From a bacterium (GTDB lineage: Bacteria; UBA8248), in the NCBI GenBank assembly GCA_022825065.1, contig JAJDYR010000018.1, forward strand, positions 33,606 to 97,605: a stretch of 64,000 nucleotides of DNA. Reading direction: 5' to 3'. The notes under the pieces were generated by a model. It ran no database searches. It was not told where the DNA came from and saw only the letters and a list, made by a program, of their open reading frames with translations. The first letter of the stretch is position 1, and each line of letters begins with the position of its first letter. Position numbers and translations under genes: made by a program. Of this stretch, positions 15,198 to 41,120 are shown piece by piece.

Positions 15198-15250
15198 GTG
15201 GGGGGGGATGTTGGAAAAGACCGTATGGGGATTCTGCAGGTAGATGGTTT

Positions 15251-15278
15251 GTAGGGACAGGTCGCGACCTGTCCCTAC
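15251..15278. repeat. REP-like perfect 28-bp palindrome GTAGGGACAGGTCGCGACCTGTCCCTAC
   Basis: Self-complementary sequence with a GTAG head. Variants recur at 17154-17180, 19421-19448, 23147-23176 and 23989-24016. Confidence 0.7.
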
Positions 15279-15339
15279 GGGTGAAGGACAACCACGGGGG
15301 TTCGGAGGGAATCACGTTTCACTCGCTCTCCCTCGGCTT

Positions 15340-15532
15340 GAAAACCAACCCCCCCTACCCCCCCTTGACAGGGGGGTATAAAAAGGCGATGTGCCCTCGC
15401 TGGGTTGAGGGGGTTTTGCTTTTTCTCGCCCCCCCAGCACCACCATACTTGAATCATCGCGCCATTTTAGCTGAGGGGGGTTTGATTTTTCTTGCCCCCC
15501 TGTCAAGGGGGGGTAGGGGGGGTTGCCTTTAT
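15340..15532. repeat. MITE-like inverted-repeat element, copy B (with internal partial duplication)
   Basis: Same terminal inverted repeats as copy A, including the gaaaaccaacc left flank and ggttgcctttatc right flank. The spacer contains a duplicated gggttgagggggttttgc segment. Confidence 0.8.
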
Positions 15533-15587
15533 CTCCTGAGGAGGAGGAGTGAATTTCTTCTGCTGAGTCGCGGTTGAGCTTTGCCCT

Positions 15588-15724
15588 TGCTCGTCATTCC
15601 GGCGTATGCCGGAATCCAGGGACTTTGCTTTTGCATTTGTCTTTTCGCTTTATCGTTTTTCTTGGTTATCCTGCGATTCGGTGTTCCCGTCTGCCCTGGA
15701 TTCCGGCATACGCCGGAATGACGG
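15588..15724. repeat. Long inverted repeat (29-bp arms, ~80-nt loop) between the AKR and cupin genes
   Basis: Left arm gtcattccggcgtatgccggaatccaggg (15588-15616) is the exact reverse complement of ccctggattccggcatacgccggaatgac (15696-15724). Each arm is internally palindromic. Confidence 0.6.
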
Positions 15725-15801
15725 CGGTGGTCAATGCCGAGCGAGGAGGGGTTTTCAACAGCCCGTAAGGTGCGATTTTATCGTTCATAAAGGAGACGAA
15801 A

Positions 15802-16203
15802 ATGCCGGTGACGAATTGGGACGAACTGCCCGTGAAGGTGCCGTTCCCGGGGGTGGAAGTGGGCCTCGTGAGCGGGAAGCACTGCATGATCAGCTACATC
15901 CACGCGAAAGGCGGGAACTCCACCCGCAGGCACCACCACGAGGCGGAGCAGATTTTCTGCCTCATCAGCGGCTCCGCCCGCGTGCAGGCGGGCGACGACC
16001 CGGTGGCGGTGCTGAAGCCGGGCGACGTCTGGTACGTGCCGCCGCACACCGAGCACCAGGCGGACTACCTCGAAGACACGGTGGCCTTCGAGGCCGCAGG
16101 CCCCATCCGCCTGGACAATTTCGCGGGCTACCTGCACGAGGACACGCATTTCGTGGATCAAAGAGACCTCGCGGCGGACATGGAGCGGGAACAGGCCGGG
16201 TAG
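15802..16203 (+). CDS. Cupin-domain protein
   Basis: 133 aa with the cupin two-His motif region (HHHEAEQIFCLISG ... PGDVWYVPPHTEH). Last ~10 codons plus the stop (AADMEREQAG*) are shared with the Rieske gene's 3' end. Confidence 0.7.
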   Translation: MPVTNWDELPVKVPFPGVEVGLVSGKHCMISYIHAKGGNSTRRHHHEAEQIFCLISGSARVQAGDDPVAVLKPGDVWYVPPHTEHQADYLEDTVAFEAAGPIRLDNFAGYLHEDTHFVDQRDLAADMEREQAG

Positions 16204-16239
16204 GGGGTAAGTGCTAAACTGGCACGGGAAATAGGTTTT

Positions 16240-16412
16240 GTAGGGGTCAGACATATATGTCTGACTGCGTGTCCGCCCTTTGGGGTCACATATCTTGTCA
16301 TCTCGTAGTATGGCGGAGAGATAAAACCGGGCGGACACGCAGGTCCGCCCCTACGGTTTCGTTTCAATGTGCGCCTTTCTCGTAGGGACAGGCCCCTGTG
16401 CCTGTCCGGGGT
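16240..16412. repeat. Cluster of REP-like palindromic units with GTAGGG heads
   Basis: Units: gtaggggtcagacatatatgtctgac; gggcggacacgcaggtccgcccctac; gtagggacaggcccctgtgcctgtccgggg. Related units occur at 19293-19448, 23058-23176, 23901-24016, 34341-34373 and 40485-40658. Confidence 0.65.
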
Positions 16413-16569
16413 CTGCGACCCCGGACCGTTCTCATGAACGGTCTCTACGGATAACCGCAATTCCTTGTTCATCACTAACGTTTGACCACGCTTGACGAAG
16501 CGCGCGGCGCCTCGCTAGATTCAAGGCGAACGCCAGAGGACCCACTACACTTTGGTGGGAGAAAAACGA

Positions 16570-16992
16570 ATGACGGAATTCGAAACCGCAACCCTCGCAA
16601 TCCAGCAAGCCACCCTCGCGGCGCAGCAGGCCTCCGTTTGGGTCGCCGCTCTCGTCGGGGCCGCGCAGTGCTCCCTGATCGCGTATGGCCTCTACTTCAT
16701 GCGCCAGGCCGCGCGTCACCGGGATGCCCAGCACCGCGAAACCATGGAGGCGATGGATCGCAGTCACCGCGAATCCATGGAGGTGATGGATCGCCGGCAT
16801 CGCGAATCCATGGAGGTGATTGAAGGCCGGCACCGCGAACACATGGAGGGGATTGACAGCCGGCACCGCGAACACATGGCGGCGCTGGCCGTCCAGCGCG
16901 AGGCGGAAAAAGATCGGCACCGCGAATCCATGGCGGCGCTTGCAGACCAGAGCGAGGCGCTCAGGGAACTCATACGGCGCACCTCACAATAG
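16570..16992 (+). CDS. Membrane-anchored protein with tandem 11-residue repeats (HRESMEVMDRR-type), unknown function
   Basis: Hydrophobic segment VWVAALVGAAQCSLIAYGLYFMRQAAR, then at least 6 tandem 11-aa repeats (DAQHRETMEAM / DRSHRESMEVM / DRRHRESMEVI / EGRHREHMEGI / DSRHREHMAAL ...). A paralog with the same architecture sits at 63584-64000. Confidence 0.55.
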   Translation: MTEFETATLAIQQATLAAQQASVWVAALVGAAQCSLIAYGLYFMRQAARHRDAQHRETMEAMDRSHRESMEVMDRRHRESMEVIEGRHREHMEGIDSRHREHMAALAVQREAEKDRHRESMAALADQSEALRELIRRTSQ

Positions 16993-17194
16993 CATTCGCA
17001 CGAGAATCGGACGTTTCACGAGGTAGAGCGGCCATAGAGAGCCGCCCTGCTGCAGGTTCGTTTCGAAACGCGGGAGATGCGCAGCCGGACAGGGCAGGGG
17101 CCGCATTCATGAATCAATCGACGTTGACTCGCCGGTAAGTGAATTTGAATTTGGAGGGACAGATCGCGACCTGTCCCTACCCCTCTCTCGGCTT

Positions 17195-17330
17195 GAAAAC
17201 CAACCCCCCCTACCCCCCCTTGTCAGGGGGGCAAGAAAAAGCAAACCCCTCTCAGCATGGCGGGGACGCATCGCCTTTTTATACCCCCCTGTTAAGGGGG
17301 GGTAGGGGGGGTTGCCTTTATCCCCTGAGG
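17195..17330. repeat. MITE-like inverted-repeat element, copy C (spacer in opposite orientation)
   Basis: Same terminal inverted repeats. The spacer is the reverse complement of copy A's spacer. Confidence 0.8.
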
Positions 17331-17424
17331 ACTCGCTCTTGCCGGGGAGTTGTTCCGCCGGTAGGGTGGTGCGGACGTTCGGGGACGAACGAGGCGGCGA
17401 AGCCTCCCCGCGCGGAATGGAGGG

Positions 17425-19284
17425 ATGATGATGGAACGCAAGCCGGAATCCCGCCGCAAGTTGATAAAGGCGGGCGATTTCATTCGTGTCGGCGCACTGG
17501 ATGAGCTCAAGCGCGAGCGCATGAAAGTGGTGAGCGGCCGGCGCCATCCCATCCTCGTGGTGTATGAGGGGGGCCGCGTTCACGCGCTCGACAACCGCTG
17601 TCCCCATCTCGGCTTCCCGCTCCACCGGGGGTCGGTGGAGAACGGCATCCTCACCTGCCACTGGCATCACGCCCGCTTCGATCTCGAGAGCGGCTGCACC
17701 TTCGATCTGTGGGCCGACGACGTGCCGAGGGCCAGGGTCGAGGTGCGGGGCGATGCGGTCTGGGTCGCGGCCGATTGCAGTTATCCCGACGAGGGCGACT
17801 ACTGGCGCACGCGGCTCGGCGACGCCATGGCGCACGACCTGGACCTGGTGTCCGGGAAGGCGGTGCTCGGCCTGCTCGATCGATCCGTTGCAAGCGCCGA
17901 TATCCTCGCCGACGCCTTCCTGTTCGGCGCGCGGAACCGCGACGACTGGAGCGCCGGTTCCACGATTCTGGCCGCGCTGGCGAACGTGCTGCCGGCCCTC
18001 GATGAGGACGACCGCTATCTCGCGCTGTTCAAGGGCATCTCCGAGGTGGCCGGCGACTGCGCCGGCGAGATGCCGCGCCGCGACCGCAAGCCCCTGGCCG
18101 ATGCCGCGCCGTCGCGGGACACCATGCGGGGCTGGCTCCGGCACTGGTCCCTGGTGCGCCACCGCGACGGCGCGGAGCGCACCGTGCTCACCGCGATCGC
18201 CGCCGGCGCGACGCCCGCGGAACTCGCCGAACTCCTGGTCACCGCACAGACCGATCGCTACTACGCCGATCGCGGCCACAGCCTCGATTTCATCAACAAG
18301 GCGATGGAGTGCCTCGACGCCATCGGCTGGCGGCACGCCGGGGCCATCCTGCCCACGGTGGTCAAGACCATGGTGGCGGCGCGCGGCGAGGAGGAGGCGA
18401 ACGCCTGGCGCCACCCGCTCGATCTGGTGCCCCTCCTGGAGGCGGCCTTCGCCGAATTGCCTGAGCTTTTCAGGAAGGGGGGAGAGGCGAAGGGCGTCTG
18501 GCGGGATCACCGCGCGCTGGCCGGGGCCATCCTCGGCGAGGAGGCCGGGCCCATCATCGCCGCCTTGGGCGCCGCAGTCGCCGCCGGCGCCCGGCCGACG
18601 GACCTCTCCCGCGCGCTCGCCTATGCGGCGGCGATCCGCGTGGCGCGATTCGGCGCCTCGAACGAGTTTTCCGACTGGAACGCGGCGCTTCACGCCTTCA
18701 CCTACGCCAACGCGTTGCATCAGGCTCTGAAGCGCATCACCGCGGCGGGGGAGGCGCCGCCCGAGGCCCAGGCCAACGTGGTGCGCGGCGTGTTCCACGG
18801 CGCCATGGCGGTCTATACGAACCGCTTTCTCAACGTGCCCCCGGCCCGGCTGCCGGAGGAGGAGCCTGCGGCGCTGGCCCGGCTCCCCGGGGACGCGGCG
18901 GCGCTCCGCCAGGGCCTGCTCGATACGATGGACCGCCAGCAGCAGGTCCAGCCGGCGGCGCGGCTGGTCGCCCGGTATTTGGACCAGGGCCACGACCCCG
19001 CAGGCATCATCGCGACGCTCGGCCATGCGCTCCTGCGCGAGGACGCGAGCTTTCACATGTTCCAGATGTACGAGGCGGGCGTGCAGCAGTACCGCGAGTG
19101 GGCGGGTGAGCCCGAAGGCGGCCACATTCTGATCGCCGTGGCCCGCTTTCTCGCCGCGCATTCCCCGACCCAGCGCGCCCGCCACCAGACCGCGACCATC
19201 GCCCGCCGGCTGCATCGCGGGGAGAGCGTGCATGAGGGAGAGGGCGGGGACGCGGCGGACATGGAAAGAGAGCAGGCCGGGTAG
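17425..19284 (+). CDS. Rieske [2Fe-2S] domain protein with large C-terminal all-alpha domain of unknown function
   Basis: CPHLGFPLHRG...(17 aa)...CHWHHARF is the Rieske CxH-x17-CxxH motif. The gene is ~72% GC, clearly higher than its neighbours. The antisense ORF 17107..19380 (-) is judged spurious. Confidence 0.7.
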   Translation: MMMERKPESRRKLIKAGDFIRVGALDELKRERMKVVSGRRHPILVVYEGGRVHALDNRCPHLGFPLHRGSVENGILTCHWHHARFDLESGCTFDLWADDVPRARVEVRGDAVWVAADCSYPDEGDYWRTRLGDAMAHDLDLVSGKAVLGLLDRSVASADILADAFLFGARNRDDWSAGSTILAALANVLPALDEDDRYLALFKGISEVAGDCAGEMPRRDRKPLADAAPSRDTMRGWLRHWSLVRHRDGAERTVLTAIAAGATPAELAELLVTAQTDRYYADRGHSLDFINKAMECLDAIGWRHAGAILPTVVKTMVAARGEEEANAWRHPLDLVPLLEAAFAELPELFRKGGEAKGVWRDHRALAGAILGEEAGPIIAALGAAVAAGARPTDLSRALAYAAAIRVARFGASNEFSDWNAALHAFTYANALHQALKRITAAGEAPPEAQANVVRGVFHGAMAVYTNRFLNVPPARLPEEEPAALARLPGDAAALRQGLLDTMDRQQQVQPAARLVARYLDQGHDPAGIIATLGHALLREDASFHMFQMYEAGVQQYREWAGEPEGGHILIAVARFLAAHSPTQRARHQTATIARRLHRGESVHEGEGGDAADMEREQAG

Positions 19285-19292
19285 GGCAGACC

Positions 19293-19448
19293 GTAGGGAC
19301 AGGCCTCCGTGCCTGTCCGGGGCCGTGTATCCGTGTATTGAATCGATTGCAGAGGGGGACCCATAGGGCAGGGCGGCCACGGAGGGCCGCCCCTACGGGT
19401 TCGTTGTGATTTTGCGGTTTGTAGGGACAGGTCGCGACCTGTCCGGGG
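19293..19448. repeat. Composite REP-like cluster
   Basis: Units: gtagggacaggcctccgtgcctgtccgggg; agggcagggcggccacggagggccgcccctac; gtagggacaggtcgcgacctgtccgggg. Same composite architecture as the clusters flanking hicBA. Confidence 0.65.
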
Positions 19449-19464
19449 TTCGGCGTGTCCGCTG

Positions 19465-19600
19465 GATTGGTCGGAAAACCAACCCCCCCTACCCCCCCTT
19501 GTCAGGGGGGTATAAAAAGGCGATACGCCCCCGCAGGGTTGAGGGGGTTTTGCTTTTTCTTGCCCCCCTGTTAAGGGGGGGTAGGGGGGGTTGGTTTTCA
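19465..19600. repeat. MITE-like inverted-repeat element, copy D
   Basis: Terminal inverted repeats with GAAAACCAACCCCCCC / GGGGGGGTTGGTTTTC extensions. Confidence 0.8.
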
Positions 19601-19942
19601 AGGCGGGGAGGCGAGCGCGTCCGGTCAAGAAAAAAAGGGCCGACACCCCTCGAAGGGCTGCTTTCAGGGGTTGTTGAAAAACCCCCGAGTGTGGGAACTG
19701 CTGCGACACATTCCCCGAGGTGCAGGCCGAGTCGGGGTGTCGGCTGCTTTCATGAAACGCGAACAGGGGCTGCCCGTTGTTCCCGTTCCCGGCTCGAGGA
19801 CTCAAACTCACAGCAAGGAGCGGTACAGTTTGCTCTATCACGAGGGAAGCAACCAACGGGCAACCCCCTTTTCGCTCTTTCCTTCATCTCGCCTTGGACC
19901 CCGGGGCTAGAGCCCCGAGGCCGAAGGCATTCTGCTCTTCTT

Positions 19943-22498
19943 CTATTCCTTCATGTAGCGCGTGCCGAATGCGCCGGCTACTGCGCCATTAGAGAAATTC
20001 GAGTTGAACTCACCCACCAGAACTGGGGGCGGTGCTACACCAGTTCCAACAGCCTCACCATCACCGGAGAATGTCCCCGACCAAGTGGACGTATCAGATG
20101 CCATGCCCTTTGATGTTCCGGTAATGCTGGCAGAACTAAGAACACCAGATGCGGTCGCCATGGTTACTTCCCACTCGTTGGCCTCTCCGCCTGATAGTTC
20201 AAAGTCCGAAATTGTCCCATGCACGGAATTGTGTTTGTCTGCGGCCACGGAAGTCTCTGCCCCGAAATAAGCCGTAAGGGCTACGTCCGCCGTGAACGTT
20301 CCTGCAGACCTGGCATCAAGAGAATTATCTGGATTCACGGTGTTGTAAACGTATACTCCGTGAGCGCCACCTTCATATTTCGCGCTTCCAGCTACAACAC
20401 TTCCTATATTCGTATTAGCGTCAAGACTTGAACCAGCGAAAGTCTGAACGGCATCGTAGGTGGTTTTGCCATCCTTGACGGTTTTCATGAGCCAGAAGCC
20501 ATAGTGCAGGTAATCATCATCCGCTACGGATACCATGGCCCCTGCGTCTGGCTTGAACTGCCATTCGCCCGTAATAGTGGTTATTTTCCCGTCCGCGTCG
20601 GTGACTGCCGTACAAGCGGCATTCACACATTCGAATGTTCCAGCCGCACCATCAAAAGTTCCCCTAAACTCACCTTCATTTCTATTTTCGGTTGTAGTGT
20701 CATCAGCAGGCAAGTTTGTGGTAGTAGTAGGCGCACTTGATATTCTGCTGGAAGCTACCTTGCCCACATCCGCCGTTTCGTCCAATTCATATGTGGTGCG
20801 TTGGTCACCAGTCCTCTCTGGGTCAGCGTCTCCCACCGTAAGAGTATACACAGAACTAAACGGCTCTGATTCAGGCGCCTCAATATCTGTCATGACACTT
20901 ACTATTTCTGAAACTCCTTTTCCGTTATCACGGACATACTTACCGTCCATCATCACGAACTTGGGGTCATTTTTCAGTGGCAAGGCAGGGTCCGTAACTT
21001 CTACCGATACAGAACCACTTTTATGAGAAATCTTCAGGGTATATTGATCGGCGGCATCAGTATCATCGAATGCCGGCGAGGTGGCGTCAGGCGTGGCGGT
21101 TGATTCAGCCGTTATGGCATCCGCTTTAGTCTTGACCATTTCATTCATAGCCTTTTTCGCAGCCGCCGCTTCCTCCATTTCTTCTTCTTCACGCCTCTTT
21201 TCTTCAGCTACTCTATCGGCCTCTTCCTTGGCGGCTACAACCATTCCGGCGAAACGCTCAACCGCAGCTTTTGCGGTCTCGGCTTTAGCCTGGGCGGCTT
21301 CCGCGTCAGCCGATGTAGTGGCGGCCGCGGCTTCATCGTTCGCGGCTTTCGCGTCCGCGACGGCATCTTCCGCCCGCGCGTAAGAGGCTTCGTCAGCAGC
21401 TTTCTGCTCATCCGTGAGGGCCGCAAGCGCCGCCTTCGCGTCCATGTACGCCTGCATGGCGGCCCCCTGCGCGGTCGAGAGCGCGGTCGCTTCCATGTGC
21501 GCGACCGTCACCATGCTAGCGTATTTCCTGGCATCGGCCAGCGCGCTTTCGGCGGCCATCTGGGCGGCTTCCGCATCCGCCGCTGTTTCGGCATTTTCCG
21601 CCCTTACTTTCGCGGCAAGCGCGTCCTCGAGAGCTCTCATGGCTATGTTGTAAGAAACGGAGTCGGCATCGCCTTGGCCCGCGATTGCATCCAGTGCAGC
21701 CTGCGCGGCATTAGCGGCCACTTCCGCGGCACCACGAGCGACTCTTATAGCGGACATTTCGGCCGCCAGATTGTCGGCAGCCGTTTTCGCGTCCGCTACC
21801 ATGTCGGCGTATCTCTGGACATCTGCGAGCGCGGCTTCCACGTCCGCCTGGGCAGCCTTCGCGGCTTCCGATGTGGTTGCCGCGTTCGCCATTGCGAGTG
21901 CTTCTTGAGCGGCCTCGTTCGCGACCTTGGCTCTCACGTATGAGTCGATGTCATGGGCTTTATTCGCCTCTGCGTCCGCCAATAAACTGGCCGCCATATC
22001 GGCCGCAGTCTTTGCGGCTTGCTTGGCGGTATCGAGCGCCATGGCTTCTTGCTGCCGATCCATTTCTGCCTGATCGGCCGCGGTCTTCGCGTCCGCTACC
22101 ATGCCGGCATACTTTTCAGCATCCGCTTGGGCCGCTTCTGCTTTCGCCTGCTCCGCCTTCGCAGCTTCCGATGTGGTTGCGGCTGCGGCCGCGTCACTCG
22201 CGGCTTTCGCGGCCGTGAGAGCGATTCGGGCTGCAGCATATGAGTCTGGATCGACACTCGCATCCGCCATCACGCCATCGACCGCCGTCATGGCAGCCGT
22301 ATACGCCGCCTTGGCGGCATTCTGCGCGGCTTCGAGAGCGGCGGCCTCGGCCGCGATCTCCTCATCCGTCGGGCCGGTCATCGGCGGTTCTGCCGTTCCG
22401 CTACCTCCGCCGCCGCCGCAGCCCGCCAGCGTCAGCGCGAACACGGCCGCCAGCGCGAAAGCGTAGAACTTGTGAATATACTTGTGTTTGAACTTCAT
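19943..22498 (-). CDS. Surface lipoprotein with Ala-rich internally repeated coiled-coil region and TbpB-like C-terminal beta-barrel domain
   Basis: Lipobox LTLAGC after the signal peptide. ~4 internal repeats of ~100 aa (TTSEAAKA..EKYAGMVADAKTAAD), also visible as DNA repeats at ~21700-21850 and ~22020-22160. C-terminal 300 aa is Gly/Ser/Thr-rich and ends ...GEFNSNFSNGAVAGAFGTRYMKE, like TbpB/fHbp-type handle-barrel lipoprotein C-termini. The 3' third of the gene is ~50% GC against ~65% locally. Confidence 0.75.
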   Translation of the reverse strand: MKFKHKYIHKFYAFALAAVFALTLAGCGGGGGSGTAEPPMTGPTDEEIAAEAAALEAAQNAAKAAYTAAMTAVDGVMADASVDPDSYAAARIALTAAKAASDAAAAATTSEAAKAEQAKAEAAQADAEKYAGMVADAKTAADQAEMDRQQEAMALDTAKQAAKTAADMAASLLADAEANKAHDIDSYVRAKVANEAAQEALAMANAATTSEAAKAAQADVEAALADVQRYADMVADAKTAADNLAAEMSAIRVARGAAEVAANAAQAALDAIAGQGDADSVSYNIAMRALEDALAAKVRAENAETAADAEAAQMAAESALADARKYASMVTVAHMEATALSTAQGAAMQAYMDAKAALAALTDEQKAADEASYARAEDAVADAKAANDEAAAATTSADAEAAQAKAETAKAAVERFAGMVVAAKEEADRVAEEKRREEEEMEEAAAAKKAMNEMVKTKADAITAESTATPDATSPAFDDTDAADQYTLKISHKSGSVSVEVTDPALPLKNDPKFVMMDGKYVRDNGKGVSEIVSVMTDIEAPESEPFSSVYTLTVGDADPERTGDQRTTYELDETADVGKVASSRISSAPTTTTNLPADDTTTENRNEGEFRGTFDGAAGTFECVNAACTAVTDADGKITTITGEWQFKPDAGAMVSVADDDYLHYGFWLMKTVKDGKTTYDAVQTFAGSSLDANTNIGSVVAGSAKYEGGAHGVYVYNTVNPDNSLDARSAGTFTADVALTAYFGAETSVAADKHNSVHGTISDFELSGGEANEWEVTMATASGVLSSASITGTSKGMASDTSTWSGTFSGDGEAVGTGVAPPPVLVGEFNSNFSNGAVAGAFGTRYMKE

Positions 22499-23040
22499 TT
22501 AGTGAGTCCTCCTGAATACATAGAAAAAGGGATTTTCAGTGAATTTCCGGCTTTCTCCGATTAACCTCCTTTCCTTCTCGATATACGGGCCTTCACAAAC
22601 TGGTCATTCGTATTTCGGGCCGCCCGGAGGACGGCGGACTTGCGGCCTCATCGTCCGGGCTGGTATGAACTCTTTCCGCGACACACGAATTCCTGAGGTA
22701 TGCGCGCACCTTTCTTTGGTCTCCTAAGGCGAGCGGTCTGCCCGCCGCTAATTGTCGTTACGGGACGCCGGAAGCCCCGTTCTCCGCCGGGAGAGCCGTT
22801 CCGGGGCGCGCGCGGGCCGCGAATGAGCGAAAAAAGACGGAAAACGGCGCCCGAAAACTCCTCCCGGGACCCCGGAATTGCGCTTGACATGGTTTTGAGA
22901 GGTGTTATATTGTCTGATAACGACAATTATCGGATATCAAGAAGCCATTTCGGTCATAACCGGCCGCCGCCGTCATGCCTGCGTCGGACATAGATGCGGA
23001 TGACGGCCCTTCATGTATCGCTGAACCCCGGCATGACGAT

Positions 23041-23200
23041 TGAAAGCCGCAGCCGCCGTAGGGGCCGTTCGTGAACGGCCCTTGTCGGAGAAGCGGGCGG
23101 TTCGCGAACCGCCCCTACGGGTTCGTTGCGATTTGCGTGGTTGTTGTAGGGACAGGCCTCCGTGCCTGTCCGGGGTCGCGACCTGTCCGAGGCCCCCGCG
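23041..23200. repeat. Composite REP-like cluster (left direct repeat flanking hicBA)
   Basis: gtaggggccgttcgtgaacggcccttgtcggagaagcgggcggttcgcgaaccgcccctacgggttcgttgcgatttgcgtggttgttgtagggacaggcctccgtgcctgtccgggg. Near-identical composite recurs at 23885-24030 in the same orientation. Confidence 0.7.
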
Positions 23201-23389
23201 CCTGTTCTTGCGATTCCGCAACCGCAGATGGCCGTCATTGTGATACACTCTGCCGCAGACGTGGATCGGCGGCTCCTGAATGATCGTCGTGTAGAGCCGC
23301 CGTATAAGTTCGGACGAACGCTTGAGGGCCGGGCCCTGGAGGTGAAGATTGCTGAATTTGCCCGATGTCGAGCGTAGGGAGGGGAACCC

Positions 23390-23593
23390 GTGAAACTCAA
23401 GGTAGTCGTTCACGAGGCGGAAGAAGGTGGATATTGGGCCGAGGTCCCGGCTGTTCCAGGGTGTGCGACGCAGGGAGATACGTTCGAGGAGTTGTTGAGC
23501 AATCTCTACGAGGCGGTCGAAGGGTGCCTCTCCGTGGACGTCCAGGAGGTGGACGTTTCGGGCGCGGGCAGGGTCGTCGAGATCGCCGTGTGA
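23390..23593 (+). CDS. hicB: Type II toxin-antitoxin system HicB-family antitoxin (UPF0150-like)
   Basis: MKLKVVVHEAEEGGYWAEVPAVPGCATQGDTFEELLSNLYEAVEGCL matches the HicB N-terminal RNase H-like domain pattern (V.EPEEGGY.V..P.LPGC.TQGDT.EEAL.N..EAIE). Confidence 0.8.
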   Translation: MKLKVVVHEAEEGGYWAEVPAVPGCATQGDTFEELLSNLYEAVEGCLSVDVQEVDVSGAGRVVEIAV

Positions 23594-23796
23594 AAATCGT
23601 CAGTGGAAAGCGCTTTTGCCGCATACTGGAAGCGAAGGGCTGGAAACTGGCGCGCACCCGCGGCAGTCACCGCATTTACGCGAAACGGGGTTCGGACATC
23701 CGCATCTCGGTGCCGGTGCATGGCGAAGCGTCGCTCAAACGCGGCTTGCAGAGGCATCTCATGAAGCTGGCGGATATCAAGGATTCCGAACTGTAG
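23590..23796 (+). CDS. hicA: Type II toxin-antitoxin system HicA-family mRNA interferase toxin
   Basis: GTG start overlaps the hicB stop (GTGA). VKIVSGKRFCRILEAKGWKLARTRGSHRIYAKRGSDIRISVPVHGEASLKRGLQRHLMKLADI matches the HicA/YcfA consensus (G.E..K.L...GW.L.R..GSH....). It is the C-terminal part of track ORF 23365..23796. Confidence 0.8.
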   Translation: MKIVSGKRFCRILEAKGWKLARTRGSHRIYAKRGSDIRISVPVHGEASLKRGLQRHLMKLADIKDSEL

Positions 23797-23884
23797 GCCA
23801 GGAGCAAGGACGACGCAATATATCCACCCTTATCGGCCCTGGCCAACCTGTTGGTTGTCACCGACATTCACCGGAATGACGAAC

Positions 23885-24030
23885 AAACGTCGCAGCCACC
23901 GTAGGGGCGGTTCGCGAACCGCCCTTGCCGGAGAAACGGGCGCTTCACGAAGCGCCCCTACGGGTTCGTTGCGATTTGCGTGGTTTCTGTAGGGACAGGT
24001 CGCGACCTGTCCAGGGTCTCTGCGCCTGTC
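23885..24030. repeat. Composite REP-like cluster (right direct repeat flanking hicBA)
   Basis: gtaggggcggttcgcgaaccgcccttgccggagaaacgggcgcttcacgaagcgcccctacgggttcgttgcgatttgcgtggtttctgtagggacaggtcgcgacctgtccaggg. Confidence 0.7.
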
Positions 24031-24044
24031 GAAGGGGACGCCCG

Positions 24045-24215
24045 AAAACCAACCCCCCCTACCCCCCCTTGTCAGGGGGGTATGAAAAAGCGACACCCCA
24101 GCGAAGGGAAAAAGCGACACCCCGGCGAAGGGGGAAAAGAAAAGAAGGTCCCCCCGACAGGGGGGAGCAAAAAAAGACCCCCCTGACAAGGGGGGGTAGG
24201 GGGGGTTGCCTTTAT
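24045..24215. repeat. MITE-like inverted-repeat element, copy E (1.5-copy variant)
   Basis: Left arm, then a spacer with an extra half-arm (ccccccgacaggggggagcaaaaaaagacccccctgacaagggggggtagggggggttgcctttatc). Confidence 0.8.
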
Positions 24216-24247
24216 CCCTTGTTAAGGGCGGCCACGGAGGGCCGCCC

Positions 24248-25501
24248 CTACGCCTCCGGCGCGGTCGCCGCCTCCACTTCGGCCGGATGAATCTCGGCGA
24301 AGGAATGATCCCTGGTCCGCCCGTCCGCTTCGAAATCGATGATCTCGGTCTCGCCGATGACCCTGTCGATCATCTCCCGGACGGGCAGGCGCGATTCCAG
24401 CCCGCGCAGGTGGCCCGCGTGGGAGCGGATGGCGGGGTGCTTGGGGACGAACAGCGAGCAGCAGTCCTGGTCGGGCTCGATGGAAATCTCGAACGTGCCG
24501 AGCGCTTTCGCCCCCTCGATAATCTCGTCCTTGTCCATGCCGATCAGGGGCCTCAGGATCGGCATCCGCACCGCGTCCTCGATGGTGGCCAGGTTCTGGA
24601 GCGTCTGGCTCGCGACCTGTCCCAGGCTCTCGCCGGTGACGAGGGCGCGGGCGTTCTCGAACCCGGCGATTCGCTCCCCGATGCGCGTCATGAACCGGCG
24701 GTAGAGGACGACGCGGTACTCGGGCTGCGTGGCGAGGACGATCTCTTTCTGCAGGTTGCCGAACGGCACCATGTAGAGCCTGCTCCCCAGCTGGTAGCCG
24801 TTCAGAACGCCGGCCAGGTCCTTCGCCTTCTCGGCGGACGCGCGGCTGAGATAAGGCGCGCCGTGAAAGTGGATGAACACCACCTCGCAGCCGCGCTTCA
24901 TGACCCGCCAGGCGGCCAGGGGGGAGTCGATGCCGCCGGAGAGAAGCGCCGCCGCCTTTCCGAGCGAGCCTGTGGGCAGGCCGCCGGGGCCGGGGATTTT
25001 CTCGGCGTACACCCAGGCCTCTTTGGGGATCACTTCCACGTGCACCGTGAGCCCCGGGCGATCCAGGTCGACGGGCAGGTGTCTTCTGGCCTGGATCGCG
25101 GCGCCGATGGCCCTGTCCCACTCCCGCGTGCTGACGGGCGTGGCCGGGAAGGATTTCCGGGTCCGGACGCGGAAGCTTTTGGTTTTAAGAGGAGCGATCA
25201 TTTCGAGCGCCGTTTGCGCCGCCGATTCGATATCGAGCGGAACGCTTCGCGCCCGGGCGAAATAGGCGACCCCGAATACTTTCCCGAGGGCCTCGATGAG
25301 AGCGCCGGGATTTTTCAGGCCGCTCGCTTCCAGAATCAGCCTTCCCGTGCGTTTCCTGACTTTGGCTTCACAGAATAAAGAGGCCGCGCGCTCGATCCGC
25401 TTCGAAAGGCGCTCGATGAAGAGCGGACGGTTCTTCCCCTTGAGGCCGATCTCGTCGTAATGGATGAGGATCGAGACGTCTTTCGGCTCACCGGAATTCA
25501 C
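24248..25501 (-). CDS. thiI: tRNA 4-thiouridine(8) synthase
   Basis: THUMP domain plus PP-loop ATPase (SGGIDSPLAAW); typical ThiI length. Confidence 0.9.
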   Translation of the reverse strand: MNSGEPKDVSILIHYDEIGLKGKNRPLFIERLSKRIERAASLFCEAKVRKRTGRLILEASGLKNPGALIEALGKVFGVAYFARARSVPLDIESAAQTALEMIAPLKTKSFRVRTRKSFPATPVSTREWDRAIGAAIQARRHLPVDLDRPGLTVHVEVIPKEAWVYAEKIPGPGGLPTGSLGKAAALLSGGIDSPLAAWRVMKRGCEVVFIHFHGAPYLSRASAEKAKDLAGVLNGYQLGSRLYMVPFGNLQKEIVLATQPEYRVVLYRRFMTRIGERIAGFENARALVTGESLGQVASQTLQNLATIEDAVRMPILRPLIGMDKDEIIEGAKALGTFEISIEPDQDCCSLFVPKHPAIRSHAGHLRGLESRLPVREMIDRVIGETEIIDFEADGRTRDHSFAEIHPAEVEAATAPEA

Positions 25502-28864: not shown

Positions 28865-28866
28865 AG

Positions 28867-33527: not shown

Positions 33528-33680
33528 GGGGATAAAGGCAACCCCCCCTACCCCCCCTTGTCAGGGGGGTCTTTTTTTGTTCCCCCCTGTCGGGGGGACT
33601 TTTTTTCTTTTACCCCCTTCGTCGGGGTGTTGCTTTTTTATACCCCCCTGACAAGGGGGGTAGGGGGGGTTGGTTTTCAA
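33528..33680. repeat. MITE-like inverted-repeat element, copy F (variant spacer shared with copy I)
   Basis: gataaaggcaaccccccctacccccccttgtcagggggg ... cccccctgacaagggggggtagggggggttggttttc. Confidence 0.8.
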
Positions 33681-33736: not shown

Positions 33737-33781
33737 AGGGTTTTTTCAACAACCCCCTTGCCGGGGGGCTGTTGAAAAACC
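33737..33781. repeat. Small palindrome tttttcaacaaccccc-ttgcc-gggggctgttgaaaaa
   Basis: Inverted repeat read directly. Partial copies of the gttgttgaaaaa motif occur at 13945, 19668 and 40253. Confidence 0.4.
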
Positions 33782-33999
33782 CTACTCCGACCCTCACGAA
33801 CTGAACGAGATCGCTCTGTAGGGGCCGCATATTATGCGGCCCTGCCTTTTACCGACAAAACACGGGACCGTCCCCTGCAATTCAGGTGGCACCCCGCCGG
33901 CATGACGACAGTGGGTCATCTCGAGAAGTTGAAAAATAGTAACGTATAAGTTACCTTTATCGAATGATCGAGATACCGCATACACGAGGAGAACTAACC

Positions 34000-34317: not shown

Positions 34318-34387
34318 ATTTTATGGGCGACCACAGGGGTGGCGGACATATATGTCTGACCGTGTATCCGCCCGCTCTTGCTGGAAA

Positions 34388-34540
34388 GGCAACCCCCCTC
34401 TTGTCTGAGGATAAAGGCAACCCCCCCTACCCCCCCTTAACAGGGGGGCAAAAAATGCAAAGCCCCCTCAGCCCGGCGAAGGCGCATCGCCTTTTTATAC
34501 CCCCCTGACAAGGGGGGGTAGGGGGGGTTGCCTTTCAAGA
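34388..34540. repeat. MITE-like inverted-repeat element, copy G
   Basis: Left-arm partial duplication (ggaaaggcaacccccctcttgtctgaggataaaggcaaccccccctaccccccc) and the canonical right arm. Confidence 0.8.
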
Positions 34541-34690
34541 CAGGCCGCGAAATTCCCCGAAGCGATTTTGCTCTCCGGCCTTTTCTTTTATAAGATGCCC
34601 CTATGTAGGATGAAATTTCATTTTACACGCGGCTGTGCCCCTCGATCCGGGCCGGCCTTTCTTTGTTGATGCGCATGGGAGGAGCGTCCG

Positions 34691-35608: not shown

Positions 35609-35648
35609 GGCGCGTTTTTCGATTATTTCAACGCCGGATGAGGAAGAA

Positions 35649-36128: not shown

Positions 36129-36133
36129 TTCTC

Positions 36134-36907: not shown

Positions 36908-36998
36908 CCCGCGTGGTCGGGTTGTTGGGAAAATCTGCCTGCGGAGGGGGCGGGGAGGTTGGTTTTGTAGGGGCGGCGAAAGAGGACGCTTCTCTCGA

Positions 36999-37200
36999 CC
37001 GGAAAGGCAACCCCCCCTACCCCCCTTAACAGGGGGGTAAAAAAAGACGATGCGCCCCGCCGGGCTGAGGGGGCTTTGCTTTTTCTTTCCCTCCTGACGA
37101 AGGGGGTAAAAAGACGACGCCCGCTGACGGAGGGGTTTTTGGTTCTTCATACCCCCCTGACAAGGGGGGGTAAGGGGGGGTTGCCTTTATCCCCTGACTA
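36999..37200. repeat. MITE-like inverted-repeat element, copy H (1.5-copy variant), ending 40 bp upstream of the molybdoenzyme start codon
   Basis: ggaaaggcaaccccccctacccccttaacagggggg ... atacccccctgacaagggggggtaagggggggttgcctttatcccctgactaagggggg. Confidence 0.8.
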
Positions 37201-37239
37201 AGGGGGGCCTTTTCGACACCCCTCTTCAAGGAGTGATTC

Positions 37240-40191
37240 TTGAGCAAGCTGGCCTTGATGATCGATCTGGAGCGGTGCTTCGGCTGCAAGAGCTGTGAGG
37301 CGGCCTGCAAGCAGGAGCACAGGCTGGGCCCCGGCGAATACCGGAACAAGGTCGTCTGGCTGGGGGACGCTTCCACGGGGACGCCTGATTTCCTCACGCT
37401 GACGTGCCAGCATTGCGAGCGCCCCGCTTGTCTCAGGGCCTGTCCCGTTCATCCCAAGGCGATTACCAAAGACCCCGATACCGGCGTGGTGGAGGTTCAC
37501 GAGGCGCTTTGCACGGGTTGCGGGGAATGCGTCATGGCGTGTCCCTACAGCGCGATGGGCTATGACGCGCAGGGGCATCATTCGGTGAAGTGCGACCTCT
37601 GCCCCGACAGACGGGAGAAGAATCTGGAGCCCGCCTGCGCCGAGATTTGCCCGGGCTACGCCATCTCGTTCGGCGAGAGGGAGAACCTCCTCGAAAAGGC
37701 CCATCAGGAGGGTCGGAGCCTTCGGGATCACGATCATTTTCTCCTGAAGCCGCAGACGATTTATCTGGAGAAAATCGCGAGAGAAAACGGCCGCGTAAAC
37801 GGCGCGGAAAATTCAAGTTCGTCTGAAAGCCCGAATCGGCCCAAGTTCGTGGAATCCCCCGAAGCGAACGGCGTTTTCCGGGAGAAAGGCCCCGATTTCC
37901 CCTACCTGCACGACAAGAACGCGCTCAAGGCGGACCGGGTGGAGCCGGGGGGATGTAATTTCTGCTTCAACTGCTGCACCGCCAAGTTCCATTTCCAGGG
38001 CGATAAGCTCATCAACGTGACGGGGAACGATGAAGACCCCGTCCTGGACGGAAAAATCTGCCCCAAGGCGCAGTTCACGCTGCAGCTCCACCACAACGAA
38101 CACCGCCTGCAATATCCCTTGAAGCGCGTCGGCCGCCGGGGCGAAAATGCGTTCGAGCGCATCACCTGGGAGCAGGCGCTCGATGAGATCGCCGCGAAAC
38201 TGGGGGTCCTGAAGGAAAAATGGGGCACGGAGGCGCTGGCGATGTTCGTCGGGACCCGAACGGGCCTGATTACCCAGAAAGGCTATGCGCGGCTGTTCAG
38301 CCAGATGTGGGGAACGCCGAACCTCCAGGGGACGGACCCGTTCTGCGCGGCGGGCAAAGTGGTCGCCTACGAGGTGACGCACGGGATCAACGGCAACGGG
38401 AACAGCTACACGTCCGAGGATATCGGCAGCGCCGGGATGTATCTCTACGTCGGGGACAACCAGGCGGAGACGCGGCCAGTCTACTTCGGCAAGGTGAACG
38501 ACTGGCGCATCAGGAACAAGACCCCGATGGTCGTGGTGGATCCCAGGTACACCGCCACGGCGAGCAAGGCGGACAAATGGCTCGCCATCCGCCCCGGCAC
38601 CGACATGGCGCTCGGCCTCGCCATGGCGCACCATATTCTCTCTGAAAATCTGCACGATGCGCGTTTCTGCGACGAATGGGTGCTGGGCTGGGAGCGCTGG
38701 CGCGATTTCATATTCTCGAAGGGCTATTCCCCCGATTGGGCGGAAGCCATCACCGGCATAGCAGCGGATGAGATTCGCGCGCTCGCCGGGGACGTGGCCA
38801 AAGCGGACGGCTGCGTCATCTTCGGGAGCCGGGGACTCAACCAGCACACCAACTCGGTGCAGACCAACCGGACGTTCATGTTCGTCGCCGCGATAACGGG
38901 GAACTGGGGCCGAAAGGGCGGCGCCTACGTGAACATGACGGCGGGGCCGCCCATCGCCGCCAACGCGCCGGAGAACAGACGGGCAGAGATTCAGAAGCCC
39001 ATGGTGCGCAGGAGCCCGGCCGGCTGGCTGAGCGCCATGCGGGAGGGCAAGCCGTACCCGATTAAAGGCCTCATCACGTGCAACAACCCGCTCGCGCAGT
39101 GGCCGGGCCAGGACGAGGCGCGCGCGGCCTTCAAAGCGCTCGACCTCATCGTCCACATCGAGTTGTTCGCGAACGAGACCTCGGCCTATGCGGATTACGT
39201 GCTGCCCGCGGCGGGCGGGATCGAGAAAGGCGAGCTGGGCCGCACGAACGACGACAGGAGAGTCGTCTGGATCGACAAGATGATCGACCCGCCGGGAGAG
39301 GCGAAGCCCGACGGGTGGATATGGACGGAACTCGGGCGGCGCCTGGGGTTCGGCGACGTCATGAAAGAGGAATACAAGGACCCGGGCAAGTTCTGGGACG
39401 AGATGTGCATCGACAACGATTTCCTGCGGGGCGTGACGCAGAAACGGCTCCACTCGGTCCCCTACCGGTGGGTGCGGTTCCCCGTCGCGAGCGAGGACGC
39501 CCCCGAGCAGGAGACGCTTTATCTCGAAGGAACGACCGCCACGGGGCAGCCCGAGGGCAAGCGCTTCCCCACGCCGAGCGGGCGGCTCGAGTTCTGGACG
39601 GAAGCGTTGGAGGAAAAATTCAAGAAAGTAGGACTCTCGGCGCTGCCGGAATTTTACAGCGAGAAGGAGAATCTCCTGGGGTTGCCGTATCTCGAATATG
39701 AACACGAAGATGATGATCTGGAAGTCATCTCCCCCTTCTCCAAGGCGCCGACGGGTTCCCGCGCCGCCAGAATCGTCCAGCCGGATGGGGAAAACCCAAG
39801 TGATGCGCTTCGCGCGCAAGGCTTCGGGACGACGCTGATAACGGGCCGCCCGCCCGCGCCGCATTTCCACAGCTGGACGCATTATTTCTGGCAGGCGCAG
39901 GAGATGTGGCCCGACCTCTATTGCCAGATACATCCCGAAAAAGCGGGGGAACTGGGAATCGAAGACGGGGAGAAAGTCCGGGTGGAGACGGCGCACGGCG
40001 CCATCGAGGCGATGGCCTGGGTGAATGCAGGGATAAGGGAAGACGCGGTGTACGTCCCCATCGGCTGGGGGGAGCGCCAGCCCTACCATCCCTGGCGGTC
40101 GGTGAATTTCCTGACGGACATCGCGCAGCGCGACCCGTGCTCGGACCAGACGAATCTGAAGAGCTTGCTGTGTAGAATCTCAAGGGCGTGA
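37240..40191 (+). CDS. Molybdopterin (bis-MGD) oxidoreductase catalytic subunit with N-terminally fused four-cluster [4Fe-4S] ferredoxin domain; no Tat signal
   Basis: Residues 1-~160 carry four Cys clusters (CFGCKSCEAAC; CQHCERPACLRACP; CTGCGECVMACP; CDLCPDRREKNLEPACAEICP) like FdnH/PsrB-type beta subunits. From ~residue 230 the GGCNFCFNCCTAKFHF cluster and the molybdopterin oxidoreductase / MGD-binding domains follow in one continuous 983-aa ORF. No twin-arginine leader and no in-frame TGA. Confidence 0.8.
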   Translation: MSKLALMIDLERCFGCKSCEAACKQEHRLGPGEYRNKVVWLGDASTGTPDFLTLTCQHCERPACLRACPVHPKAITKDPDTGVVEVHEALCTGCGECVMACPYSAMGYDAQGHHSVKCDLCPDRREKNLEPACAEICPGYAISFGERENLLEKAHQEGRSLRDHDHFLLKPQTIYLEKIARENGRVNGAENSSSSESPNRPKFVESPEANGVFREKGPDFPYLHDKNALKADRVEPGGCNFCFNCCTAKFHFQGDKLINVTGNDEDPVLDGKICPKAQFTLQLHHNEHRLQYPLKRVGRRGENAFERITWEQALDEIAAKLGVLKEKWGTEALAMFVGTRTGLITQKGYARLFSQMWGTPNLQGTDPFCAAGKVVAYEVTHGINGNGNSYTSEDIGSAGMYLYVGDNQAETRPVYFGKVNDWRIRNKTPMVVVDPRYTATASKADKWLAIRPGTDMALGLAMAHHILSENLHDARFCDEWVLGWERWRDFIFSKGYSPDWAEAITGIAADEIRALAGDVAKADGCVIFGSRGLNQHTNSVQTNRTFMFVAAITGNWGRKGGAYVNMTAGPPIAANAPENRRAEIQKPMVRRSPAGWLSAMREGKPYPIKGLITCNNPLAQWPGQDEARAAFKALDLIVHIELFANETSAYADYVLPAAGGIEKGELGRTNDDRRVVWIDKMIDPPGEAKPDGWIWTELGRRLGFGDVMKEEYKDPGKFWDEMCIDNDFLRGVTQKRLHSVPYRWVRFPVASEDAPEQETLYLEGTTATGQPEGKRFPTPSGRLEFWTEALEEKFKKVGLSALPEFYSEKENLLGLPYLEYEHEDDDLEVISPFSKAPTGSRAARIVQPDGENPSDALRAQGFGTTLITGRPPAPHFHSWTHYFWQAQEMWPDLYCQIHPEKAGELGIEDGEKVRVETAHGAIEAMAWVNAGIREDAVYVPIGWGERQPYHPWRSVNFLTDIAQRDPCSDQTNLKSLLCRISRA

Positions 40192-40279
40192 CCTGTCCGA
40201 GGTCGCGATTTGTCCTATCGGTCGGATTTGAAATTCACTCCCCCCTTGAGTGGACTGTTGAAAAAGCATTTATCAAAAG

Positions 40280-40425
40280 AATAACCCCCCCTACCCCCCC
40301 TTAACAGGGGGGTCTTTTTGTTGCTCCCCCCTGTCGGGGGGACCTTTTTTTCTTTTACCCCCTTCGTCGGGGTGTTGCTTTTTTATACCCCCCTGATAAG
40401 GGGGGGTAGGGGGGGTTGCTTTTCC
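40280..40425. repeat. MITE-like inverted-repeat element, copy I
   Basis: Same arms. The spacer variant matches copy F (ggggggtctttttgttgctcccccctgtcggggggacc...). Confidence 0.8.
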
Positions 40426-40484
40426 AGTCGAGGATGATCACCACCGTCATCCGGCGGCGGGATTCCGTCTTGCCGCGCATTGGT

Positions 40485-40658
40485 GTAGGGGCCGCATATA
40501 TGCGGCCCATTGTGGGAATGGGGAAAAAGCAGGGTCGCATGTATGTGACCCCTACACGCGGGCGGGCGGCCATGGAGGGCCGCCCCTACGGCGATACGCG
40601 CGATTTCCGTAGGGACAACCCCCGTGGTTGTCCCCCAAGCCCCCGCGCCTGTCCGAGG
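40485..40658. repeat. Cluster of REP-like palindromic units
   Basis: Units: gtaggggccgcatatatgcggccc; gggtcgcatgtatgtgacccctac; gggcggccatggagggccgcccctac; gtagggacaacccccgtggttgtccc. Confidence 0.65.
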
Positions 40659-41120
40659 CTATTCAATCGGGTCGGGCTGAACGGGCACGCAGATTTCGGT
40701 CCTGGTGTCGGCCTCCGTCGTTTCGCGGGGGTCGGTGACGTAGCGGTACACCACCGGACCTCCTCTTCTCTTGAATCCGCTGTGCGGCAGCCATTGTTCG
40801 AGCATCTCCCCCAGTGTAAGCCCGAGCGTATCGTATCCCCCGATGTGCGTCCCCACCGCGTGCCATCCGCCCGGAAAGTCTGTCTCATGGAGCCCTTCAG
40901 GTCTTGGCAGGTCTGTAAGCGCTCCCCGGCAGGCTTCGTATCCCTTCTCTCCATGGTCGAGACCGCAAGCGGGGCCGATGCGGGGGAGGTTCCCGCAGAT
41001 CCTGAGCAGGCGCGCCTGTGTGAGGCCGATGGTCTCAGGCGTCGCGGGCGCGTCCGTGCGAAGCGCCCAGAGCTTCAAGGCGTTCAGTTCCAGGACTTTG
41101 ACGGCTTGTGAAGTCCTCAT
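40659..41120 (-). CDS. GyrI-like small-molecule-binding domain protein
   Basis: C-terminal ~150 aa of track ORF 40659..41252 has the GyrI/SbmC-like fold pattern (GLHETDFPGGWHAVGTHIGGYDTLGLTLGEMLEQWLPHSGFKRRGGPVVYRYVTDP). Start set at ATG 41120, just after the nifU-like stop; the start is uncertain. Confidence 0.5.
   Translation of the reverse strand: MRTSQAVKVLELNALKLWALRTDAPATPETIGLTQARLLRICGNLPRIGPACGLDHGEKGYEACRGALTDLPRPEGLHETDFPGGWHAVGTHIGGYDTLGLTLGEMLEQWLPHSGFKRRGGPVVYRYVTDPRETTEADTRTEICVPVQPDPIE

Follow-up and report, generated by a model that had tools for sequence, protein, structure and literature searches.

What are the short palindromes with a GTAG head that recur between the genes of a 64,000-nt stretch of bacterial DNA (hereafter the window; positions 33,606 to 97,605 of contig JAJDYR010000018.1, assembly GCA_022825065.1, lineage UBA8248), and how did they come to be there? 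A reading made from the sequence alone had picked out ten loci with such hairpins and likened them to repetitive extragenic palindromic (REP) elements, the sequences on which REP-associated tyrosine transposases (RAYTs, also termed TnpA-REP) act. Our analysis leads us to regard the hairpins, with good confidence, as GTAG-tagged REPs of the class cognate to TnpA-REP subclass 2.4, or RAYT Group 4, occurring as single units, as inverted dimers resembling REPINs (REP doublets forming hairpins) and as groups resembling bacterial interspersed mosaic elements (BIMEs). We further infer that a RAYT exists in this very genome and has spread these copies.

Anatomy of the GTAG-headed hairpins

A census based on GTAGGG/CCCTAC occurrences and hairpins within the window returned 21-22 units of one form, namely GTAG followed by GG(G), a stem of 7-10 bp, a loop of 0-8 nt and (C)CC. 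All of them are intergenic, and together they span positions 15251-40634. Perfect hairpins of at least 7 bp abutting GTAG number 19, as against 0.73 on average, and never more than 2, in 30 simulations under a dinucleotide model, and GTAG is the most frequent 4-mer located 5' of the strong hairpins of the window (15 cases). When 19 units are aligned, GTAG is invariant and the stem begins 0-2 nt downstream of it. The outer six stem pairs are 96.5% paired, with double-sided changes at four of the six; the observed covariation score was reached by none of 500 shuffles, and slid registers pair at only 38-52%.

At least six core types can be distinguished, the stems of which diverge through compensatory changes: type A (GTAGGGACAGGTCGCGACCTGTCC, a 24-nt unit, four copies in the window), type B (GTAGGGACAGGCCTCCGTGCCTGTCC, three copies, plus a variant B'), type C (GTAGGGGCGGCCCTCCGTGGCCGCCC, three copies, plus a variant C'), type D (GTAGGGGCSGTTCGYGAACSGCCC, four copies), type E (GTAGGGGCCGCATATATGCGGCCC, two copies, plus one imperfect) and type F (GTAGGGGTCAGACATATATGTCTGAC, one copy, plus a headless one). 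One further unit carries a GTAGA head. The foot of the stem is GGG/CCC in types C, D and E and GGA/TCC in types A and B. The motif GTAGGG-N10-30-CCCTAC has a single match in the window, the double-foot unit at 15251-15278, and none in 100 shuffles.

The sequence-only reading had taken the conserved GTAG head as the hallmark of REPs. The units indeed show what defines a REP, an unpaired 5' GTAG ahead of a G+C-rich hairpin, and they are intergenic, repeated and arranged in inverted dimers and groups. All ten of its loci contain palindromic units, the four core sequences that it quoted are all present, and the 28-mer at 15251-15278 is indeed a perfect palindrome. Some of its coordinates had to be revised: the unit placed at 33822-33848 lies at 33818-33842, the palindrome at 34341-34373 has no head, and the stem of the unit at 17155-17180 is mismatched. 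The units that it had seen at 16240-16412 are there, and an additional one, at 16424-16448, sits just past the end of that interval.

Transposase genes and occurrence beyond the window

If the hairpins are REPs, they should not be confined to one contig. We scanned one genome per species with the motif GTAGGGACAGG-N6-8-CCTGTCC and found at least 120 matching loci, in phyla that include Bacteroidota (several cultured Pontibacter), Chloroflexota, Nitrospinota, Latescibacterota, Omnitrophota, Patescibacteria and Acidobacteriota. Among the matches listed, the variable inner bases are always self-complementary and the flanks are unrelated, and the exact type A 24-mer is the commonest form (42 matches). 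A Bacteroidota metagenome-assembled genome (JADKIC010000002, L071, 1886-2173) contains four exact type A REPs at a spacing of 88 nt, alternating with a related unit, and thus holds a tandemly amplified REP cluster.

Five of the 120 listed loci, which were selected by REPs and cover at most 8 kb each, encode a Y1 transposase, and in four of the five the gene directly adjoins REPs; we estimate that chance would yield some 0.3-0.5 such loci for a gene present at 1-2 copies per genome. In Ignavibacterium (L041), the transposase gene is bracketed by seven GTAGGG-headed hairpins with four different cores against an AT-rich background. The encoded protein (164-184 aa; motifs PNHIH, WQRS and YIDQNP) scores 34 bits against PF01797, for which the cut-off is 23. 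Of the NCBIfam models, NF047646 (REP-associated tyrosine transposase) matches it best, with 67 bits. The corresponding motifs are PNHVH, WQRS and YILSNP in L207 (178 aa) and PNHFH, WQR and YIRNNP in L206. A profile search returned at least 8000 homologues, many of which are labelled RayT by JGI.

The association extends into the genes themselves. In the cultured isolate Pontibacter virosus, the gene is preceded by two exact type A REPs in inverted arrangement, which stop 36 nt upstream of it, and a third type A copy lies in frame, 15 residues past the HUH motif. A contig of the same lineage as the window (MKWU01000011, L185) encodes the N-terminal 150 residues of a RAYT with two type A REPs inside the frame and more alongside. 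The genes of L205 and L206, which are 77-78% identical to that of L185, each have one in-frame type A REP and another located 85 nt upstream, and L205 additionally holds a fragment of an end of the second repeat described below (C7/G7). The peptides VGTGRDLS and DRSRPVPT, which are translated type A REPs, occur about 15 residues past the HUH motif in L207, L185, L206, L102 and L067. REP-derived peptides are present in 103 of the 177 retrieved homologues, a set biased by two queries that carried the peptide; others (VGA..., ...APT and ...RPY) occur in homologues retrieved with a query free of the insert. We discarded the idea that in-gene REPs are a novelty, as PMC6006769 already describes them as a hallmark of subclass 2.4. 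The sequence-only reading had called for a RAYT homologue; such genes, with type A REPs on their flanks and within them, are found in the same-lineage L185, in P. virosus and in Ignavibacterium, and the window itself contains none.

For the lineage of the window, metagenomes were queried with the C7/G7 repeat, so that the contigs obtained are selected for this neighbour of the REPs. The 82 matching stretches came from a handful of assemblies. The G+C content of these contigs (0.606-0.617) equals that of the window (about 61%), and their tetranucleotide correlation with it is 0.98-0.99. They contain 131 GTAG-headed hairpins in 674 kb, mostly with cores A, B, B', C and E. Since contigs of the same composition carry the same cores, the REPs are a property of the lineage and not of the window alone, and the enrichment beyond the window for which the sequence-only reading had asked is seen in these contigs.

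How such units would spread can be modelled on the RAYT/REP pairs that have been studied. In single-stranded DNA, each unit would fold into a hairpin and be bound by the RAYT, which would recognise the head together with the stem foot and the shape of the fold. The unpaired GTAG would serve as a guide for cutting a nearby dinucleotide (CT in the studied pairs), followed by strand joining, and units or dimers would thereby be copied or moved to other intergenic sites; any effect on mRNA 3' ends would be secondary. In the Stenotrophomonas maltophilia pair, GTAG is needed for cleavage at CT and a perfect stem is needed, and base identity in the central and upper stem has only a moderate effect (Corneloup et al. 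2021, PMC8266576), which is consistent with many cores sharing one head through compensatory changes. Binding and cleavage of single-stranded REPs have been demonstrated only for the E. coli, S. maltophilia and Marinomonas pairs (PMC8266576).

Several results weigh against this reading. Within the 64-kb window, neither a tblastn search with E. coli YafM nor a hidden Markov model built from 120 retrieved RAYTs and run against all open reading frames (ORFs) of at least 60 aa matched anything. The NF047646 score of the Ignavibacterium protein (67 bits) lies below the equivalog cut-off of 80 bits. The L206 gene has an in-frame stop, and the L205 gene has one inside the embedded REP, so some of these RAYT genes may be dead. 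Megablast of the window against the C7/G7-selected contigs gave no overlapping genes; all that ties L185 to the window is therefore the repeats and the composition that they have in common. Nor could a transposition event be reconstructed that had left a clean empty site. Furthermore, all REPs fall within 26 kb and none in the remaining 38 kb of the window, where at least 12 gaps of 80 nt or more that include a gene 3' end are REP-free (1-13900 and 40700-64000). Such clustering is not predicted by simple genome-wide scattering; local spread, an assembly join or a segment of distinct composition may lie behind it.

Arrays, gene ends and a second palindromic repeat

The units and the copies of the second repeat are listed in the table below. 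The D-D and E-E' dimers are inverted, with heads outward, and each folds as a single long hairpin. The most frequent dimer in the window and the lineage contigs taken together is an unlike pair, B(+)...C(-) (n = 11), without a long-hairpin fold (z -1.6). Over the same set, the GTAG heads of paired units are outside in 26 cases and inside in 9, and 10 pairs are in tandem. A conserved linker of 24-27 nt, GGGTTCGTTGCGATTTGCGTGGTTT, ties minus-strand units to the A or B unit that follows.

GTAG-headed units and C7/G7 elements of the window (window coordinates; z, folding z-score)
Feature	Position	Strand	Remarks
Type A REP, double-foot (GTAG at one end, CTAC at the other), GTAGGGACAGGTCGCGACCTGTCCCTAC	15251-15278		Perfect palindrome; lies 54 nt beyond the aldo-keto reductase stop; DNA fold -13.2 kcal/mol, z -6.0
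Type F REP, GTAGGGGTCAGACATATATGTCTGAC	16240-16265	+	The 3' half of a type C' REP (16265-16278) is fused to it
Type C' REP, GTAGGGGCGGACCTGCGTGTCCGCCC	16329-16354	-	Sequence given on the minus strand
Type B REP, GTAGGGACAGGCCCCTGTGCCTGTCC	16382-16407	+	Conserved 27-nt linker to the preceding unit
REP-like unit with GTAGA head, GTAGAGACCGTTCATGAGAACGGTC	16424-16448	-	Missing from the list of the sequence-only reading
Type A REP, one stem mismatch, degenerate second foot	17155-17180	-	Left end of a C7/G7 element 14 nt away
Type B REP	19293-19318	+	9 nt past the Rieske gene stop; first half of a B(+)...C(-) dimer, heads outside
Type C REP, GTAGGGGCGGCCCTCCGTGGCCGCCC	19371-19396	-	Sequence given on the minus strand
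Type A REP	19421-19444	+	Linker GGGTTCGTTGTGATTTTGCGGTTT to the type C unit
D(+)/D(-) inverted dimer, GTAG heads outside, 13-nt spacer	23058-23118		One long REPIN-like hairpin; -27.2 kcal/mol, z -4.8
Type B REP (23146-23171), then headless 3' part of a type A REP	23146-23188	+	
D(+)/D(-) inverted dimer, second	23901-23961		Direct-repeat copy of 23058-23118 on the opposite side of hicAB
Type A REP	23989-24012	+	
Type C REP	24226-24251	-	TAG of the head is the minus-strand stop codon of the ThiI-like gene
Type E REP, GTAGGGGCCGCATATTATGCGGCCC	33818-33842	+	
Headless F-like palindrome, GGCGGACATATATGTCTGACCG...	34341-34373		No GTAG; probably a decayed or hybrid unit
E(+)/E'(-) inverted dimer, GTAG heads outside, 23-nt spacer	40485-40555		Second unit (40532-40555) imperfect; z -3.5
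Type C REP	40564-40589	-	
Type B' REP, GTAGGGACAACCCCCGTGGTTGTCCC	40609-40634	+	
C7/G7 element	13965-14096		
C7/G7 element	15340-15530		
C7/G7 element	17195-17326		
C7/G7 element	19474-19605		
C7/G7 element	24044-24213		
C7/G7 element	33533-33678		
C7/G7 element	34412-34542		
C7/G7 element	37001-37187		
C7/G7 element	40276-40423		

The position of the units relative to genes, which the sequence-only reading had proposed to check, is biased. A gene 3' end is present in all ten intergenic regions with GTAG-headed units, which lie between unidirectional or convergent genes, and the three divergent (5'-5') regions within the span hold none. In five cases, the first unit begins 9-65 nt past the stop codon, and three genes take their stop codon from the TAG within GTAGGG (16201-16203, 19282-19284 and, on the minus strand, 24248-24250). 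Moreover, Di Nocera et al. (2013, PMC3733652) place GTAG-tagged REPs mostly downstream of coding regions and allow that they may act as RNA elements. All this would suit hairpins that evolved in the host as terminators or stabilisers of mRNA 3' ends and were kept by selection, with no link to a transposase. We nevertheless consider such an origin very unlikely: units point either way with respect to the gene upstream of them, 24-26-mers are repeated without change in unrelated settings and phyla where nothing in their flanks is shared, and these sequences are also found beside RAYT genes and within them. The terminator role suggested from the sequence alone finds no support, since the stems lack T-runs and a terminator scan registered just one of about 21 REPs; we therefore rejected identity with intrinsic (Rho-independent) terminators. 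A role in RNA may exist as a secondary one, and it would leave the origin of the units and their conserved GTAG head unexplained.

The regions around the units differ between relatives. The sole close public relative found is VXPH01000187 (L042), from Nitrospinota bacterium isolate SB0662_bin_51, which is 94% identical across window positions 17324-19256; the Rieske protein encoded there is 93% identical (gene 93-94%). Repeats bound the homology on either side, and there the two contigs differ in their REPs and C7/G7 elements. The genes downstream of the Rieske gene are unrelated in the relative, the contig of which ends within the upstream repeats. With flanking repeats that differ and unrelated downstream genes, synteny is thus broken at the repeat arrays. 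The cupin and Rieske genes of the window share a terminal block, GARCAGGCCGGGTAGGG (protein ...MEREQAG*), around 16189-16205 and 19270-19286. Because the homology with VXPH01000187 ends at 19256, just ahead of this block, repeat-associated sequence seems to have rewritten the 3' end of the Rieske gene.

A second instance of turnover involves the HicB/HicA pair (23378-23796), which is bracketed by direct repeats of about 180 nt, each a D-D-linker-A array (23030-23205 and 23873-24029). In the left copy, what was a type A unit has become, through a 19-nt insertion, one of type B followed by a headless A, which shows one route by which new cores can arise.

The same intergenic regions house a second repeat family that is not REP and on which the sequence-only reading is silent. 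Its nine copies in the window are near-perfect palindromes of 126-190 nt built on C7-TA-C7/G7-TA-G7, with ends of the form GAAAACCAAC-C7-TA-C7-TTGTCA-G6 and its complement, and none lies outside 13.9-40.7 kb. The element folds at -55 kcal/mol (z -8.8), and some copies contain an internal hairpin with a T-run; the remaining hits of the terminator scan fall within it. The G7-TA-G7 core (candidate sequence GGGGGGGTAGGGGGGG) is predicted to fit a G-quadruplex motif on each strand. In the collections searched, the element is restricted to the lineage, the 82 metagenome stretches all having the composition of the window. Clustering of 821 neighbouring ORFs yielded only element translations and orthologous housekeeping genes, no transposase recurring beside it, and a literature search for the strings of the element turned up nothing relevant.

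This neighbourhood raises the question of whether the GTAG-headed units are ends or remnants of some other mobile element, such as a miniature transposable element with inverted repeats (MITE) of the DDE type, the ends of an IS200/IS605 insertion sequence or sub-parts of C7/G7, with GTAG a coincidence. In the window, REPs share eight of their ten intergenic regions with C7/G7, about half of the REPs in the lineage contigs lie less than 500 nt from such an element, and GTAG is contained within its G7-TA-G7. Yet in most phyla the REPs occur without C7/G7, the spacing between the two is not fixed, and no transposase recurs next to C7/G7. The REPs are single hairpins of 24-28 nt that lack the terminal inverted repeats and target duplications of DDE MITEs, and this origin appears extremely unlikely to us. 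A fixed composite of REP and C7/G7 was likewise rejected: the distance between them varies (medians of 131-3525 nt by type), and the two therefore occupy the same permissive intergenic regions without being parts of a single unit.

The broken synteny also recalls an integron, in which 14-41 kb would be a cassette array and the palindromes, either the REPs or the 130-nt element, attC-type sites. Transcription units are indeed separated, at intervals of 0.9-9.5 kb, by palindromes of 126-190 nt, the invariant ends of these palindromes (CAAC...GTTG) resemble the R''/R' cores of attC, and some genes between them are cassette-like (cupin, HicAB and a GyrI-like/Cass2 domain). To this we assign a near-negligible probability. 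The window contains no integrase, the best upstream ORF being an M20 peptidase, and core genes (GreA, ThiI, polyprenyl synthase, Maf, hydantoinase A and B) lie between the repeats. The fold of the 130-nt C7/G7 element is nearly symmetric and lacks extrahelical bases such as attC has, and the element is dispersed over many long contigs with one copy per locus instead of a single array; the REPs measure only 24-28 nt. Identity with attC sites was rejected on these grounds.

A more speculative proposal builds on the REP reading itself: C7/G7 may represent a novel non-autonomous element, one that exploits the RAYT/REP machinery or has REP arrays as its targets and that, together with these arrays, would mark junctions at which single genes and short operons are shuffled. 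The direct repeats bracketing hicAB, the different neighbours of the Rieske gene in a relative of 93-94% identity and the G-quadruplex motif in the core of the element point in this direction, and we regard the proposal as doubtful. The C7/G7 element is less explained than the REPs and deserves a look of its own.

Other repeats were noted in these regions. A small third family, GGGG(Y)TGTTGAAAAA(CCC), is present at 33739-33782, where it makes a 19-nt inverted repeat, and at 19666-19685, 13941-13955 and 40250-40262, as well as in VXPH01000187. The inverted repeat 15593-15625/15693-15727 is based on the palindrome CATTCCGGCGTATGCCGGAATG and presumably resembles another widespread GC-rich hairpin repeat of environmental genomes. 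Six 33-nt tandem repeats (HRE[ST]MEAMDR) make up part of an ORF at 16552-16992, and a 21-nt tandem repeat at 63767-64000 continues past the end of the window. On the minus strand, 19943-22498 encodes an internally repetitive 851-aa protein without a Pfam match, inside a patch of G+C 0.555. The neighbouring luciferase-like monooxygenase genes at 414-1589 and 1885-3129 are about 90% identical over 300 nt.

The genome belongs to a sponge-associated, Nitrospinota-like lineage that is uncultured and little studied. The gene content of the window is ordinary for a chromosome, with GreA, two polyprenyl synthases, hydantoinase A and B, aminotransferases, a ThiI-like protein, Maf, FolD, Dxs, RlmN, an aldo-keto reductase, a cupin, a Rieske protein and hicAB; known RNA families and tRNAs were not found in the 64 kb. 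By exact-protein look-up, the region was traced to the metagenome assemblies ENA ERZ23491266 and Logan SRR16351696, where its shorter copies break at the repeats. The right-hand 20 kb (44-64 kb) has a lower G+C content (0.574), also at third positions, and a somewhat different tetranucleotide profile (r = 0.91 against the rest); it may stem from an assembly join or be a segment of its own. Short motifs, GCGGGSAAATGCG and GAAATTTATCG, are common to the divergent region at 13.5 kb (13443-13473, 13903-13923 and 13577-13636) and the region at 61.6 kb (61744-61764 and 61601-61639), which argues that both ends of the window derive from one genome.

Relation to known REP systems

The anatomy of the hairpins, the enzyme class, the in-gene REPs and the mixed arrays are all already published, and the locus opens no new question. 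What it adds is a REP-rich example from a poorly studied lineage, and the observation that an identical 24-nt REP, type A, accompanies subclass 2.4 RAYT genes in hosts as distant as Pontibacter and this lineage. For annotation, the repeats matter in that they break assemblies, yield spurious ORFs and alter the 3' ends of genes. The locus is also useful for choosing a RAYT/REP pair for biochemistry and, with one A-to-B transition preserved as a 19-nt insertion, for studies on the origin of REP variants.

Alternating unlike REPs define E. coli BIMEs, and the arrays described here share with BIMEs the alternating orientation, the unlike partners and the conserved linkers. The stems differ, those of E. 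coli REPs being bulged and imperfect and those found here perfect. Like Pseudomonas REPINs, the D-D and E-E' dimers are inverted doublets that fold into one long hairpin; the commonest dimer, B with C, sets the arrays apart from REPINs in lacking such a fold. The RAYT class is also a different one, namely subclass 2.2/Group 2 in E. coli and 2.5/Group 3 in Pseudomonas.

The GTAG-tagged REP super-family comprises 24 families from several phyla, with several families per genome, alternative complementary residues in the stems, and head-to-head, tail-to-tail and head-to-tail dimers as well as groups, according to Di Nocera et al. (PMC3733652), who use the term REPtron for a RAYT gene flanked by REPs. 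The units of the window resemble this super-family, including the SMAG elements of S. maltophilia, in having an unpaired GTAG at one end and stems of 6-13 bp with alternative complementary residues, in belonging to several families per genome, in forming the same three kinds of dimer, in lying between unidirectional or convergent genes, and, outside the window, in the existence of REPtrons. Hence, of the suggestion that several core types co-occur in fixed composite arrays, the arrays are real, and the accompanying remark that they are less commonly described is wrong, given that such mixtures are known both for BIMEs and for the super-family (PMC3733652). A text search of the literature did not find the exact cores, such as GGACAGGTCGCGACCTGTCC; the family sequences shown in the figures of PMC3733652 lie outside that search.

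The closest match is to subclass 2.4 of TnpA-REP (Quentin et al. 2018, PMC6006769), which corresponds to RAYT Group 4 (Bertels et al. 2017, PMC5581495). The subclass is defined by the motifs NH[IFV]H, WQ and YIxNNP and a length of about 194 aa, and its REPs are long, with three G-C pairs at the foot of the stem and double-foot units (GTAG...CTAC), and are scattered over many phyla (PMC6006769). Every published feature was also seen here when the window and the RAYT-bearing loci are taken together: the 5' GTAG head on a long G+C-rich hairpin, the GGG/CCC foot of types C, D and E, the double-foot unit at 15251-15278, linked transposases with NH[IFV]H, WQ and YIxxNP, and a scattered distribution over many phyla. 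The system departs from the subclass in three respects. The foot of types A and B is G-C, G-C, A-T instead of three G-C pairs, and the cognate gene was found in a related contig and not in the window. Finally, the host is Nitrospinota-like, a lineage that the accessible text of PMC6006769 and PMC5581495 does not name for this subclass.

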